Positions 44,158 to 56,626 of a DNA stretch of 64,000 nucleotides are shown piece after piece. Where the stretch lies: assembly GCF_003790525.1 (NCBI RefSeq), contig NZ_CP033635.1; one strand, written 5' to 3'. Position 1 is the stretch's first letter. Each line of letters begins with the position of its first letter. The notes below the pieces were generated by a model. That model had not been told where the DNA came from. It made no database searches and worked only from the letters and a program-made list of their open reading frames with translations. The translations under genes were made by a program, and so were the position numbers. This DNA is from Escherichia coli. GTDB taxonomy: Bacteria; Pseudomonadota; Gammaproteobacteria; Enterobacterales; Enterobacteriaceae.

Positions 44158-44322
44158 ATGGCAAAGCCGATCATCACGCTCAATGGCCTAAAAATCGTCA
44201 TTATGTTGGGAATGCTGGTCATTATTCTCTGCGGTATCCGTTTTGCCGCCGAGATCATCGTGCCGTTTATTCTCGCATTATTTATTGCTGTTATATATAA
44301 CTTATTTCGCTTAACTAATTGA
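44158..44322 (+). pseudogene. tqsA: tqsA 5' fragment (first ~45 codons, then foreign tail and stop) cut by the inserted element
   Basis: [45 protein letters not shown] then IYNLFRLTN*; the rest of the gene resumes at 55720. Confidence 0.85.
44286..44294 (+). repeat. left copy of 9-bp junction direct repeat TGCTGTTAT (candidate att core/overlap)
   Basis: identical 9-mer at 55720-55728; flanking bases differ on both sides. Confidence 0.6.
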
Positions 44323-44365
44323 TTTAATTAAATAATTTGCACTACAAAAAGTGCCAAAAATCGCA

Positions 44366-44391
44366 AATTAACTACACCATTAACTACACCG
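44366..44391 (+). repeat. left copy of 26-bp direct repeat AATTAACTACACCATTAACTACACCG (tandem 12-mer; candidate integrase arm-type sites)
   Basis: exact copy at 55567-55592; followed in both copies by a related ACAACGTG(G/A)AACAA motif. Confidence 0.6.
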
Positions 44392-45466
44392 TTCGGCGCA
44401 CTGTATGAAACAACGTGGAACAAATAGACACAAGCGGCAGGCTATACCGTTATCATTTTTCAGCTATCCGTCATGAAGCTGGTGGATGATCACGGATAAC
44501 CAGGCATCTACAGCGCCTTAAAAAGCTGAACCCGACAAACATTTCTGCTTATCGGGTCCGATCGCTCTTTCTACTCGTGGCAGATGAGTTTACTAGGAAG
44601 GGGGGAACATTGTATCAGGCTATCCCCTTTCTGTGCTGATTCGGCTGGTGAATGATCTACTTGGGGCACTACACTTTTCGGATAGTGCGGGTATCCGGTT
44701 TTCTGCCTCATCGAATTTTAAGCCTTCTGACGGCCTGTATATCATTTCCTGTGGAGTTGCCGCCCTGATAGCGAATACTGCGGCAGCATGTGATTTACCC
44801 CCCGTTCTGTTGATGTTTGATGTGGCTGGTTGATGTGCTGCCATGTTTTCCGCCAATGGTGGAAAAGCCCACCAGCGCAACGCAGGACGCATAAAACCAT
44901 TGCGATGACTCTGGACGCAAAACCACGTTTAACGATGTTTTGCACTGAACCAGAATACTGTTCGTTTTTGTCTCGATGTCCGTACGTATTACGTCCGCAC
45001 CTAATCCGGCATCATGCCCACCAGCGTAACGCATTTTTTTAATTTCGTGGCTGTGCGTCCACCAGCTACGCCGGAATGGGGTATTCCGTTTCAACGGAAC
45101 AGGTATGACGAACATAATCGCACCTTCTCCCGAAAACGGTGCGACCTGCATCATCGAAATGGTGATTCAGCTACTCGGCGATTTTCACCATTCAGAATCT
45201 GGCGGGTGAGTTATCCAGCTTCCACCAATGGGGGATTCTGGAACAATCAACGGGTTACGCCTTATCAGCAAAAAAGCACATCAACTGTAAAGGAAATCGT
45301 TATGGTTGCTGGTGGGCTGCGTCACCATCATGGTGATGATGCTGTCCAGTCAGCCGGAACGGTTGAACAGGGTGGCTATGGGTCACTCTGTTGTGCGTTA
45401 TTTGCGTGATCCTGGTACGGGGTGACTATCTTTCAGATAGTCGGTTGCCTGGTTACACGAAAAAAT

Positions 45467-46570: not shown

Positions 46571-46648
46571 GCTCTGATAGTCTGGTGTCGTCGGGTCCTT
46601 TCCGGCATGTGGACCCGTTACGGGGCGTCGACCTCGCGCGTTTTCACT
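46571..46648 (+). other. lambda-like cos site copy A (cosQ-cosN-left-arm homology); cosN-like 12-mer GGGCGTCGACCT at 46602-46613
   Basis: GGGTCCTTTCCGG...GTTACG GGGCGTCGACCT CGCGCGTTTTCACTATTTATGAAAATTTTTCGG closely matches the recalled lambda cos junction (lambda cosN GGGCGGCGACCT). Confidence 0.75.
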
Positions 46649-46664
46649 ATTTATGAAAATTTTT

Positions 46665-46775
46665 CGGGATCCATGTCCGGTTTCTCTGCAAGTTAACCAT
46701 ATGAAAAATATAAAAACATGCTTTCCATGAACCGGACATGCGCAAAAAACAGACACTAAAACCGGACATCGAACC
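46665..46775. repeat. three CCGGACAT motifs in alternating orientation next to cos copy A (candidate cosB-like terminase-docking sites)
   Basis: ATGTCCGG near 46671, CCGGACATG near 46729, CCGGACATC near 46763. Confidence 0.45.
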
Positions 46776-46837: not shown

Positions 46838-47272
46838 TTACTGTTCTGTATCGGCTGATTGCTCCATGCTGGCACGGCGAACGCTTACGGCATGACGCCA
46901 CCCAGCCAGAAAGCCAGCCATTTTATTTCGTGCCTTGCTCACATCTTCCGGTGAATAGCCGTAAATATGCAAACCTTCATCAAATCGATGTTCTGTTTCT
47001 TCACTGGAGTACTCGTCACGCTCAGATGAAAGCAGCCTCGCAAACATAATTTTTTCCAGCGCACTGGTTTCTACGTGATATCCGATGGTCTGAAGATGGC
47101 TTTTACCTGAATACCAAAGCAATGTATGCCCGATGTGATAACCGCCAGACTTTCCGCGATCCGCATTAAGATACGGCATCCCCTGTTTGGTCCATGCGCG
47201 AATAGTGGTTCTGTTAACCTTGAAATGTTCAGCTATTTCCTGCTGACTTACAAAACAAGCTTTATCAATCAT
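46838..47272 (-). CDS. Nu1-like small terminase-type DNA-binding protein (wHTH N-terminus, divergent C-terminus); possibly a packaging-redirection factor
   Basis: VSQQEIAEHFKVNRTTIRAWTKQGMPYL aligns with lambda Nu1 VNKKQLADIFGASIRTIQNWQEQGMPVL; 144 aa versus 181 aa for Nu1. Confidence 0.65.
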   Translation of the reverse strand: MIDKACFVSQQEIAEHFKVNRTTIRAWTKQGMPYLNADRGKSGGYHIGHTLLWYSGKSHLQTIGYHVETSALEKIMFARLLSSERDEYSSEETEHRFDEGLHIYGYSPEDVSKARNKMAGFLAGWRHAVSVRRASMEQSADTEQ

Positions 47273-47334
47273 AATGTTACCTTAACTGCATGGTTAAATA
47301 TCAATCAAGTGGTGGTGGTGTCACCTTCACGGAA

Positions 47335-47405
47335 AAACGTCATAAATAGCGAAAACGTGCGAGGTCGACGCCCCGTAACGGGTCCACATGCCGGAAAGGA
47401 CCCGC
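47335..47405 (-). other. lambda-like cos site copy B, inverted relative to copy A; cosN-like 12-mer (reverse complement) at 47362-47373
   Basis: reverse complement reads GGGTCCTTTCCGGCATGTGGACCCGTTACG GGGCGTCGACCT CGCACGTTTTCGCTATTTATGA; lies about 70 bp upstream of the terS-like start in the lambda cosN-to-Nu1 orientation. Confidence 0.7.
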
Positions 47406-50611: not shown

Positions 50612-50659
50612 AAATTTACCTTCGGTATTTTGTCCTGCTGTTCGATTTTTATTCATTGC

Positions 50660-50870
50660 TCACCATCTCTCACTTTTACTACTCACTTTTTAAAGCGTCT
50701 CGCTTCGTCTCACTTGAGATTTTTGTGTTTTGTATGTGCATGTTTCATAAGTGTTTTTTCACTGCTCACTTTTGAGCATGTATACAGGTGAGAAAGTGAG
50801 TAATTGTGTTAATATTTTGTAAAAACCTCACCATTACTCACTTTTACTACTCACTTTTTACAGTGGTCCT
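50660..50870. repeat. iteron array (CTCACTT heptamers, two 24-bp direct repeats) - candidate replication origin of the element
   Basis: at least 6 direct and 2 inverted CTCACTT copies between 50669 and 50856; CTCACTTTTACTACTCACTTTTTA at 50669 and 50839; directly 3' of the primase-helicase gene. Confidence 0.6.
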
Positions 50871-53752: not shown

Positions 53753-53941
53753 TTAGTGAACTGCCTCGCAGCTTTCCTTCCATGCCAGAACTTCGGATAA
53801 AGACCAGCCAACGGAACGACCGCCCAGCTTACGCCGTGATGGGAATTGTCCGGCCTTTTCCAGGCGGTAGCGGCATGAGCGGCTAAGGCCTGTTAGCTTT
53901 TCGCATTCTTTTTCACGTATAAAGCGATCAGTGCTTAACAC
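53753..53941 (-). CDS. alpA: AlpA/Vis-family phage regulatory protein (excisionase-like)
   Basis: 62 aa; ...IREKECEKLTGLSRSCRYRLEKAGQFPSRRKLGGRSVGW... typical AlpA fold signature. Confidence 0.8.
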   Translation of the reverse strand: MLSTDRFIREKECEKLTGLSRSCRYRLEKAGQFPSRRKLGGRSVGWSLSEVLAWKESCEAVH

Positions 53942-54315
53942 TATTGCCCCCTTTCGTTTCTTAAAGAGTTATTTCGTGTTCTATTGCGTTGGGATGTGTC
54001 TGATTGTGTCAGGGTGATTCAGAGTTGGCAAATGTTGGTGGCGGGTATTTTACAGAAACGGGGTGATTTTAATAAAAATCATTTTAATTCAGTATTATGC
54101 AAAGGCATAAAATCTCGTTTTATGCCTTTTTTCTCACTATTTAAAGCGTTATTCGCTAATGTATAAAAAACCAGTTGAGCATTAAAAATCAGCAACTTAT
54201 AAATCTGTATACTTTTTGACCTCTTGTTCGTGGTTGTTTCACGTTGTTGTGTATTGTTGCACGTTGTATCTGTGCACTTATCCAGTATGCGCATACTGAA
54301 AAAACACGAAAAAAA

Positions 54316-55566
54316 TTATTTTCTTCTGGCTACTGGTAGCGTGGTTACGTTTTCATGTGCTCCCGCCAGTATCTCCAACCGCTCCACCCACATATCCAGC
54401 GCATTGCGTTTCGCATCCAGATAACGGGAATGATTATAAACTCGCTGCATTCCTGGCATCTGGTGGCCTGTAAGCTGCTCCACGACGTGAGGATCCACGC
54501 CTAAATCGTTCAGCATCGTTGTAAAGGTGCGCCGGATGTCATGCAGTGACCATTGAGGGTGTTTTAGCCTCCTGTGCGCTAATCTGCCGTACTGCGATAC
54601 GCTGGCCTCCTGTTTCACTTCCCCCAGTAATAAGCCCGTGTGCCTGTTCTGCTCCACCAGCCGCGTGACGAACGGCAGGATCGCTTCCGGTATGGGCCGG
54701 AATATTGCGACCTTCGTTTTGCTGTGCTCCTTCGGAACGGTCCAGAGCATTTCCGTGAAATCCCACTCCCCGATCTCCGATAACCTCAGTTCTACCGTCC
54801 TGGCTCCGAAGACAATCAGGAGGCGGATTAGTGCGACGTAGTAAGGGGAAAATATTTTTTTGTCCAGTGCCTGCAATAATTCGCCCAGTTCTTTGGTGCT
54901 TAAGACACGTTCGCTTATATCCGGTTTTTTCCCAACGTCCGCCACGTTCAGATCGTCCAGAACGTTGCTGATTGCATAGCGCCGCCTCCGGCAAAACTTA
55001 AGCGCCTGTTTGCACGCCTGTAGCACGAATCCGGCAGTAACAGGCGTTCGCTTTGCCACCCGATCAAAACAGGCCAGCCAGTGCCGTAGCTCGCATTTAT
55101 CCAGCGGCATAGCACCAATGTGCTGTATTACGTGATTATTAAGTCGCCTTTTCAGGGCGATATAATCCACGCGGTTTTCCTTTACGTAAGACTCAAGCCA
55201 GTAGGTGAGCGCATCTCCAACCGTTACAGGCTTTAACGCTTCCTGCATGGTGTAATTCATCTCATGACGTGGATTTTTCCCCTCAGCCAGCCATGCGCGA
55301 CACTGGGCGGCTTTTTCCCTGGCTGATTTCAGGCTCAGATCAGGATAATTTCCCAGCTTAATACGTTCCGGTCGTGTCTCTCTTCCCGTTCCGGCCCTGT
55401 AAGTGAAATACCAGGTTAAAAGGCCGCTGGTTGAATGCCTGACGCTCAGATTTCCACCGTCATTAAGAAAGGCTGTTTTTTGGGCGGGTGTGCCGTTGAT
55501 TTTCCTTAGCTGTGTATCGCTCAGCTTGTTAAGTGCTCTGGTCATAATTTTGAATCCGGTCATCAC
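54316..55566 (-). CDS. int: tyrosine site-specific integrase (P4-type)
   Basis: 416 aa; C-terminal catalytic region with ...HDIRRTF... and ...LTGHQMPGMQRVYNH... (R..H..R..Y). Confidence 0.88.
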   Translation of the reverse strand: MMTGFKIMTRALNKLSDTQLRKINGTPAQKTAFLNDGGNLSVRHSTSGLLTWYFTYRAGTGRETRPERIKLGNYPDLSLKSAREKAAQCRAWLAEGKNPRHEMNYTMQEALKPVTVGDALTYWLESYVKENRVDYIALKRRLNNHVIQHIGAMPLDKCELRHWLACFDRVAKRTPVTAGFVLQACKQALKFCRRRRYAISNVLDDLNVADVGKKPDISERVLSTKELGELLQALDKKIFSPYYVALIRLLIVFGARTVELRLSEIGEWDFTEMLWTVPKEHSKTKVAIFRPIPEAILPFVTRLVEQNRHTGLLLGEVKQEASVSQYGRLAHRRLKHPQWSLHDIRRTFTTMLNDLGVDPHVVEQLTGHQMPGMQRVYNHSRYLDAKRNALDMWVERLEILAGAHENVTTLPVARRK

Positions 55567-55592
55567 AATTAACTACACCATTAACTACACCG
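55567..55592 (+). repeat. right copy of the 26-bp direct repeat AATTAACTACACCATTAACTACACCG
   Basis: exact copy of 44366-44391, directly upstream of the int start codon. Confidence 0.6.
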
Positions 55593-55719
55593 ATCGTTGC
55601 ACAAAGGGCTACAACGTGAAACAAGCTGGAACAAGAAAAATCACAAATTTGTTTATAATCAAAAACATAATGCACAACCTGAAACATTATGAAACGGCAA
55701 AAAACACTAATTGATAAAG

Positions 55720-56626
55720 TGCTGTTATTCTTAACCCGCTGGTGCAACACATGGTCCGCTGGCGAGTGCCGCGTGTACTGGCGGTGTCGATTTTGATGAC
55801 CATCATCGTGATGGCGATGGTGTTGCTGTTAGCTTATCTGGGTTCCGCGCTCAACGAGTTGACGCGGACGTTACCGCAATATCGCAACTCTATTATGACG
55901 CCGCTGCAAGCGATTGAACCGTTGTTGCAACGCGTAGGGATTGATGTCTCAGTTGACCAACTGGCGCATTACATTGATCCGAACGCGGCAATGACGTTGC
56001 TCACCAACTTATTGACGCAGTTATCTAATGCCATGTCATCAATCTTTTTATTGCTGCTGACGGTGCTGTTTATGTTGCTCGAAGTGCCACAATTGCCCGG
56101 AAAATTTCAGCAAATGATGGTGCGTCCGGTTGAAGGGATGGCGGCGATTCAGCGTGCGATTGACAGTGTGTCTCATTATCTGGTGCTGAAAACAGCCATC
56201 AGCATCATCACCGGCCTGGTCGCCTGGGCGATGCTCGCCGCACTCGATGTTCGCTTCGCTTTTGTCTGGGGATTGCTGGCCTTTGCGCTTAATTACATCC
56301 CTAATATTGGTTCAGTTCTCGCGGCAATCCCCCCTATCGCTCAGGTACTGGTGTTTAATGGCTTCTACGAAGCGTTGCTGGTGCTGGCGGGATATCTGCT
56401 AATTAATCTGGTCTTCGGCAATATTCTGGAGCCGCGCATCATGGGACGTGGGCTGGGGCTTTCCACATTGGTGGTATTTTTGTCGTTGATTTTTTGGGGA
56501 TGGTTGTTAGGACCGGTGGGTATGCTGCTTTCCGTGCCGTTAACAATTATTGTCAAAATTGCGCTTGAACAAACAACGGGAGGTCAAAGCATCGCCGTTC
56601 TGTTAAGCGATCTCAACAAAGAGTGA
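55720..56626 (+). pseudogene. tqsA: tqsA 3' fragment (about 300 codons) downstream of the inserted element
   Basis: in-frame continuation ...[26 protein letters not shown]... after a stop codon at 55715. Confidence 0.85.

Follow-up and report, generated by a model that had tools for sequence, protein, structure and literature searches.

Predicted integrase and AlpA sites in the int-proximal attachment-site arm of a PICI-type phage satellite inserted in Escherichia coli tqsA

The attP site of phage lambda, which spans ~240–300 bp, is served by a heterobivalent integrase and carries arm sites on both sides (P1/P2 and P'1–3), with Xis and IHF sites located between the arms and the core. In lambda, transcription of int runs towards attP from PI/PL and leaves the arm free of overlap with its promoter. 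In the satellite P4, Vis regulates its own promoter in addition to int. According to PMC2951348, which cites Piazzolla 2006, both Int and the AlpA-like Vis lower Int expression in P4, with Vis acting on int at the RNA level. At attL-intS of KplE1/HK620, arm sites and TorI sites overlap a mapped promoter, and Int and the directionality factor repress int (Panis et al. 2010, PMC2951348). The IntI integrase of PAI I536 likewise exhibits strong self-repression, and an IHF site lies in its int promoter region (Chitto et al. 2020, PMC7286903). For the helper-embedded PICIs, Mageeney et al. (2023, PMC10111431) describe an attP in which two co-oriented doubled motifs lie at 81 bp and 132 bp from the centre, one on each side, and leave the choice of binder between the integrase and AlpA.

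We analysed a comparable locus in a 64-kb stretch of E. coli DNA, referred to here as the window. Taking the explanation developed below as one whole, we regard it as likely that positions 55567–55728 constitute the int-proximal attachment-site arm of a phage satellite of PICI type, 11.4 kb in length, that has inserted in tqsA. This segment would act as attR in the integrated state and would become the P arm of attP once the island is excised. The main genes of the island all lie on the minus strand and encode the integrase, AlpA, a RepA-family helicase, an SSB, PerC-like regulators, a lambda-E-type major capsid protein, a decoration protein and a Nu1/TerS-like protein. The island thus has the int-alpA-replication module, the packaging and capsid genes, the size (~10–15 kb) and the lack of tail and lysis genes that characterize PICIs, an organization also described for enterobacterial PICI satellites (10.1101/2022.09.08.507074). 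A sister island with the same int/att module (L003) contains a full HK97-type capsid-forming module. The int-proximal arm is present in 1159 of the 5426 complete E. coli genomes. Like P4, the island is a satellite with int beside attP and an integrase that has an N-terminal arm-binding domain; P4 differs in integrating in a tRNA gene and in its repeat organization.

The boundaries of the island were delimited by the empty site and by a circular attP contig. The gene tqsA, which encodes the AI-2 exporter, starts at 44159, is broken after the 9-mer TGCTGTTAT at 44286–44294 (plus strand; attL identity block) and resumes past a second copy of TGCTGTTAT at 55720–55728 (plus strand; attR identity block and crossover region). 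Of 5426 complete E. coli genomes, 5169 contain, without interruption, the empty tqsA site obtained by joining the flanks over one 9-mer, and many of these match it at 100% identity. The attP reconstructed by joining the island ends over the 9-mer matches, across the junction, the 11.1-kb metagenome contig L036 (IMGVR_UViG_3300045988_152974), which represents a sister island and is terminally redundant, and a second circular contig from a related lineage (L085) has the attP junction likewise. The terminal redundancy and the attP junctions of these contigs show that circular or concatemeric forms exist in nature. Another candidate for the crossover, ACTAATTGAT, which is found near both ends, was dropped in favour of TGCTGTTAT on the basis of the empty site and the circular contig. 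No tRNA target was found within the 64-kb window, and a search of the reconstructed attP against the phage collection returned no match.

The insertion splits tqsA after codon 45, and the island supplies no replacement for the part that is lost; strains that carry the island presumably have no active AI-2 exporter. Elsewhere in the island, direct repeats of TTTTACTACTCACTTTT occur three times at 50659–50863, immediately downstream of the RepA-helicase gene, with a spacing of 83–85 bp and 37-nt copies that are 92% identical; these iteron-like repeats are probably the replication origin of the island. The Nu1/TerS-like gene (46838–47272) is flanked by a 78-nt inverted repeat (46592–46669 and 47327–47404; 91% complementary). 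Between int and alpA, at 54107–54145, a perfect hairpin (AAAGGCATAAAA...TTTTATGCCTTT) is followed by a T-run on the plus strand and looks, from its sequence, like a terminator of transcription antisense to alpA. In E. coli Z226-5, only a 165-nt int remnant with an intact arm persists between smrA and abgR (L007, 15836–16173), and its sequence identifies it as a decayed island that has retained its att arm.

The preliminary description of this locus had proposed that a 26-bp repeat is present at both ends, that it contains putative integrase arm sites, and that its right copy abuts the int start codon. The repeat itself is confirmed, with the identical 26-mer AATTAACTACACCATTAACTACACCG located at 55567–55592 and 44366–44391 in direct orientation; a 26-nt query, shifted against it by one base, matched the window twice and had no match in any of 100 shuffles. 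Each 26-mer consists of two tandem 12-mers, ATTAACTACACC, at 55568–55591 (plus strand) in the int-proximal (P) arm and, as identified by repeat searches, at 44367–44390 (plus strand) in the int-distal (P') arm. Both copies of the 26-mer lie inside the island, on both sides of the crossover. Without gaps, the two ends can be aligned over 69 nt at 77% identity, a similarity that is explained by each arm containing two 12-mers followed by three phased sites of a second class, which are described below.

The contact between the repeat and the start codon does not stand. The longest open reading frame of int starts at a GTG at 55566, but the 7-codon extension that it implies is not conserved, and PGAP uses the equivalent of the ATG at 55545 in ten related islands. 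Type-B islands have a stop inside the upstream extension, and in the clpS-cspD lineage a 1-nt length difference, as read from the sequences, appears to break its frame. GTG 55566 was accordingly rejected as the start, and the true start is most likely the ATG at 55545. The gene then occupies 54316–55545 on the minus strand and encodes a tyrosine integrase of 409 aa with the Pfam domains Arm-DNA-bind_3, Phage_int_M and Phage_integrase. The N-terminal domain matches Arm-DNA-bind_3 (PF13356) with E = 1e-18 from residue 15 of the long reading frame, and also matches PDB 3JTZ, the solved N-domain of a CP4-like integrase. With the likely start at ATG 55545, the repeat is located 22 nt upstream of the gene and inside its leader. 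This 22-nt leader (55546–55567, minus strand), as delimited from the arm alignment, contains the 11-mer TCCGGTCATCA at 55555–55565 (plus strand) and only a weak Shine-Dalgarno sequence. The 11-mer is kept in lineages A and C despite differing neighbour bases and is replaced in type B.

All relatives examined, which come from Escherichia, Salmonella, Serratia, Cronobacter and Citrobacter and have integrases as little as 55% identical, possess a doubled 12-mer in their int-proximal arm. Its general form is A-N-T-R-A-C-Y-N-C-A-C-M, and the variants among relatives are ATTAACTACACC, AGTGACTACACC, ACTGACCACACA, ACTGACCTCACA, ACTGACCGCACC, ATAGACTACACC and ACTGACTGCACC. The distance from the 12-mer block to the end of the conserved core-type site is 152–154 bp in 12 lineages, whereas the int start codon can be as near to the block as 22 nt or as far from it as 58 nt, depending on the lineage. 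The 12-mers are thus placed by the geometry of recombination and not by the start of the gene. By coordinate arithmetic, the far-arm block lies 88.5–89.5 bp from the centre of the crossover in three lineages. The earlier proposal of putative arm sites is well supported by the presence of the repeat in both arms in the same orientation, the arm-binding domain of the integrase, the fixed core spacing and the covariation with the N-domain described next. Taken together, these features indicate that the 12-mers are probably arm-type sites of the integrase. As predicted from these features, the N-terminal domain of the island integrase would bind the tandem 12-mers of this arm and the identical pair in the other arm, and core-bound integrase molecules would bridge to them in building the recombination complex.

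The sequence of the 12-mer varies together with that of the integrase N-domain. Wherever both arms were recovered (L003/L006, L036, L038 and L095), they carry the same 12-mer variant; this two-arm comparison covers E. coli lineages. Lineages A and C have ATT[A/G]ACTACACC in both arms, type B has AGTGACTACACC in the near arm and AATGAC/AGTGACTACACC in the far arm, with far-arm flanks almost identical to those of the window, and L095 has ACTGACCACACA in both arms. The form ATTAAC accompanies integrase N-domains with ...SV(R)HSTSGLL... (A and C) or SARVSK (L094), while with a lysine at that strand position the 12-mer has G as its fourth base and is also changed at its second or third. The lysine-type N-domains are SVKYLTSGKL in type B, EIKHSK in L095, IKHSK in L092, L093, L096 and L097, and (I/V)KVS in L098–L100. 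Position 4 (A/G) is also polymorphic within lineages, and the covariation as a whole comprises few independent evolutionary events and is given without phylogenetic correction. The distant relatives were reached by protein search and contig look-ups; an integrase-alignment scan of species-representative genomes yielded no confirmed relative.

The preliminary description had also called the 127 bp between the repeat and the junction (55593–55719) AT-rich and otherwise unexplained. The composition holds, at 32% GC against 49% for the island, but the segment is occupied by sites of AlpA type in phased arrangement, by an IHF-like site and by a conserved site of core type, and the region is now largely accounted for. 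The phased sites, here termed class 2, have the degenerate form TG[A/G]AAC[A/G]; in the arms they all lie on the plus strand, in pairs or triplets with an exact 10-bp spacing. In the int-proximal arm, a triplet at 55606–55637 consists of a degenerate CTACAA, TGAAACAAG and TGGAACAAG (at 55608, 55618 and 55628) and is predicted to bind AlpA, since its variants track the AlpA type. A second pair, TGAAACATT and TGAAACGGC, occupies 55679–55698 close to the core (plus strand; at 55681 and 55691; 10-bp spacing) and has lineage-specific equivalents. The far arm contains three such sites, TGAAACAAC, TGGAACAAA and AGACACAAG, at 44405–44434 (plus strand; at 44407, 44417 and 44427; 10-bp spacing). Four more, GTGCAACAAT, ACACAACAAC, GTGAAACAAC and CACGAACAAG, are arranged with an exact 10-bp spacing on the minus strand at 54222–54266, between the int stop codon and alpA. 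A relaxed class-2 pattern identified only 11 phased pairs in the whole 64-kb window, five of which are in the two arms and the int-alpA gap. The array at 54222–54266 is inverted relative to the arm array, with 26 nt that are 88% complementary to 55611–55636, so that the two arrays bracket int.

Six other lineages likewise have class-2 arrays upstream of alpA, built in every case from the motif variant of that lineage. The alpA gene of the window (53753–53941, minus strand) encodes a 62-aa winged-helix regulator of the AlpA/excisionase type (Pfam Phage_AlpA; PHROG 'excisionase and transcriptional regulator'), and AlpA is needed for PICI excision and induction (PMC11773190; 10.1101/2022.09.08.507074). 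Islands whose AlpA contains LSRSCRYRLEKAG (lineages A and B) have TG[A/G]AAC, and those whose AlpA contains (S/C)RTTRYELEKKG (C and L095) have CGAACA. The two classes of site dissociate in both directions. Between lineages A and B, AlpA and the class-2 motif are constant while the integrase N-domain and the 12-mer change, and the same holds for C and L095, which have AlpA and the class-2 form CGAACA in common. Between A and C the reverse is seen: the N-domain type and the 12-mer are constant, while AlpA and the class-2 motif change. These sequence patterns are read most economically as a pairing of the 12-mers with the integrase and of the class-2 sites with AlpA, and the two groups of 10-bp-phased sites within the 127 bp would most likely be bound by the AlpA excisionase/regulator.

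Between the two class-2 groups lies an AT-rich spacer with a GC content of 23% (55638–55680), whose sequence includes the IHF-like near-consensus AATCAAAAACATA at 55657–55669. As read from their arm sequences, L094, L098 and L099 have a perfect match to the IHF consensus at this arm position, and in the window an exact consensus, AATCAATTAGTTA, is present at 44312–44324 (minus strand), between the core and the far-arm 12-mers in an H'-like position. Beside the crossover, the conserved ACACTAATTGATAAAG at 55704–55719 (plus strand) is a predicted core-type integrase site (C) that is kept next to quite different cores. In the phoQ-roxA island (L002), the core-type site forms a perfect inverted repeat, GATAAAA-TATGTCC-TTTTATC, with a 7-bp spacer. 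The int-proximal arm would therewith also hold an IHF-type bending site and a core-type integrase site beside the 9-bp crossover block. Islands at tqsA, phoQ-roxA, yifB and smrA-abgR have near-identical arms and integrases that are 94% identical, yet have different cores of ~35 bp and different integration sites (core segments compared: window 55704–55728 and 44286–44330; L002 13664–13690 and 2466–2505; L004 16150–16180). The pattern suggests re-targeting by exchange of a core cassette.

The int gene reads away from the junction, with 174 bp (55546–55719) between its start codon and the crossover block. From this orientation it follows that the leader, and presumably the promoter, lie inside the arm, which is certain for the leader and probable for the promoter. 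The proposal that arm sites fall in the leader or promoter region of int is thus true by geometry, given the orientation of int and its 174-bp distance from the crossover. A consensus sigma-70 scan of the arm on the int strand identified no promoter, and in a PWM sigma-70 scan of eight lineages nothing rose above background, the top score being 8.0 where shuffled sequence had a median of 8.7. Extending the PWM scan to the circular attP and 700 bp beyond the far arm revealed nothing better, and again no score above those of shuffles. The best weak candidate, which is not significant, is TTCATA-18-TATGTT on the minus strand (−10 TATGTT at 55669–55664; −35 TTCATA at 55693–55688). It holds its position in lineages A, B and A', and its −35 box falls inside the second class-2 pair. 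If this candidate were real, the promoter would be overlapped by class-2 sites and by the IHF site, and the 12-mers would lie ~65–90 nt downstream of the transcription start, the position of a roadblock and not of an operator. A promoter within the 12-mers was considered and rejected, as no acceptable −10/−35 pair was seen by eye and the type-B 12-mers have no −10-like sequence.

Autoregulation of int through the arm sites is plausible by analogy with P4 Int, KplE1 IntS and PAI-I536 IntI, and we infer from these cases that int would probably be expressed at a lower level when Int (and AlpA) occupy the arm. In KplE1, which serves as the model for negative autoregulation by Int and its directionality factor, int is also transcribed away from the junction and the promoter region overlaps an arm with Int arm-type sites and directionality-factor sites. 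There, the promoter, the transcription starts and the sites were mapped experimentally, with one arm site over the −10 box, whereas the sites reported here are predicted and no promoter is assigned. The two systems also differ in integrase family, in site sequences and in target, which is the argW tRNA in KplE1. PAI I536 shares an IHF-like site in the region upstream of int, but it is a large pathogenicity island and not a satellite, and gel-shift and reporter assays served to map its sites.

Among described architectures, that of the helper-embedded PICIs (PMC10111431) comes closest. In common with these, the tqsA island has a tandem doubled motif with a period of ~12 bp, two co-oriented copies per attP at unequal distances, and an int-alpA module. 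The distances are ~89.5 and 143.5 bp, slightly larger than the 81 and 132 bp reported for the helper-embedded elements. The motifs differ, with a TGTATTGC core in that family compared to A-N-T-R-A-C-Y-N-C-A-C here, as do the integrase clades and the targets, which in the described family are prophage late genes and here are chromosomal genes or intergenic sites. Where the family has the motif tgTGTATTGCantgTGTATTGCa and integration in a helper-prophage late gene, the island has the 12-mer ATTAACTACACC and lies in the chromosomal tqsA. On these sequence and target-site grounds, the tqsA island is a parallel case to the helper-embedded PICIs and not a member of their family. That study leaves the binder open, whereas here covariation points to the N-domain of the integrase and a second class of sites that tracks AlpA is resolved.

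The arm sites could serve recombination only, with int not autoregulated, either through a promoter that lies elsewhere (for example, read-through across the circular attP) or through binding in the leader that has no effect. We take this to be a real possibility without favouring it. The repeat is held at a fixed distance from the core while its distance to the start codon drifts, no arm promoter rises above background, and the shared strand of the island genes makes attP read-through geometrically possible in the circular form. In the integrated state, however, only this arm and then an oppositely oriented tqsA fragment lie upstream of int, the far arm has no strong promoter either, and integrase represses itself in every tested case with such a layout (PMC2951348, PMC7286903). 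That the repeat is mainly an operator controlling int, with recombination secondary, is very improbable in our judgement: the 22 nt that separate it from the start codon in the window lineage would suit this role, but the other end of the island, 11 kb distant, has an identical copy with no gene there to control, and it is the core spacing that is conserved and not the int spacing.

The binder of the 12-mers could also be AlpA or another island protein, the class-2 sites being the true integrase arm sites. This assignment is left open for the analogous doubled motif in PMC10111431, and class-2 sites are indeed present in both arms as well. It is nevertheless contradicted by 12-mers that change with the integrase N-domain while AlpA is constant (A versus B; C versus L095), by class-2 sites that change with AlpA while the N-domain type and the 12-mer are constant (A versus C), and by class-2 arrays that lie upstream of alpA without 12-mers, as would fit a regulator of its own gene; we therefore consider it quite unlikely. 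A repeat arising by chance or as a functionless relic duplication is scarcely credible in view of the absence of shuffle matches and of a geometry kept fixed across Escherichia, Salmonella, Serratia, Cronobacter and Citrobacter despite diverged flanks. The preferred explanation is that the 12-mers are bound by the integrase and the class-2 sites by AlpA within an attachment-site arm that includes the int leader.

With an arm-binding N-domain, repeats on both sides, a conserved core distance and N-domain covariation, the attachment site of the tqsA island is, as predicted from its sequence, a well-resolved heterobivalent site of the lambda/P4 type with an ordinary arrangement, and it reveals no new kind of mechanism. 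It resembles lambda attP also in a total size of ~240–300 bp and in having, as predicted, sites for a directionality factor and for IHF between arm sites and core. It departs from lambda in that its class-2 sites are found on both arms, whereas the directionality-factor sites of lambda are on one arm only. A broader reading can be offered tentatively, although as a whole we think it rather unlikely to hold. Each arm would be a copy of a duplicated bipartite module of two Int sites and three AlpA sites, accompanied by the four-site array near alpA; AlpA, the helper-induced master regulator, would be at once directionality factor, regulator of its own gene and co-regulator of int; and the Int/12-mer pairs, the AlpA/10-mer pairs and the ~35-bp core would be swapped independently, giving a modular, re-targetable system. 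AlpA co-regulation of int may possibly occur by looping between 54222–54266 and 55606–55637.

For annotation, the analysis corrects the start codon of int. On the question raised by the helper-embedded PICI study, sequence evidence attributes the doubled attP motif of PICIs to the integrase and not to AlpA. For AlpA, which acts as master switch in these islands, the literature surveyed gives no defined DNA targets; predicted AlpA sites can now be named in both att arms and upstream of alpA. The practical outcome is a map of the sites in the attachment region of an E. coli satellite family that is very common.
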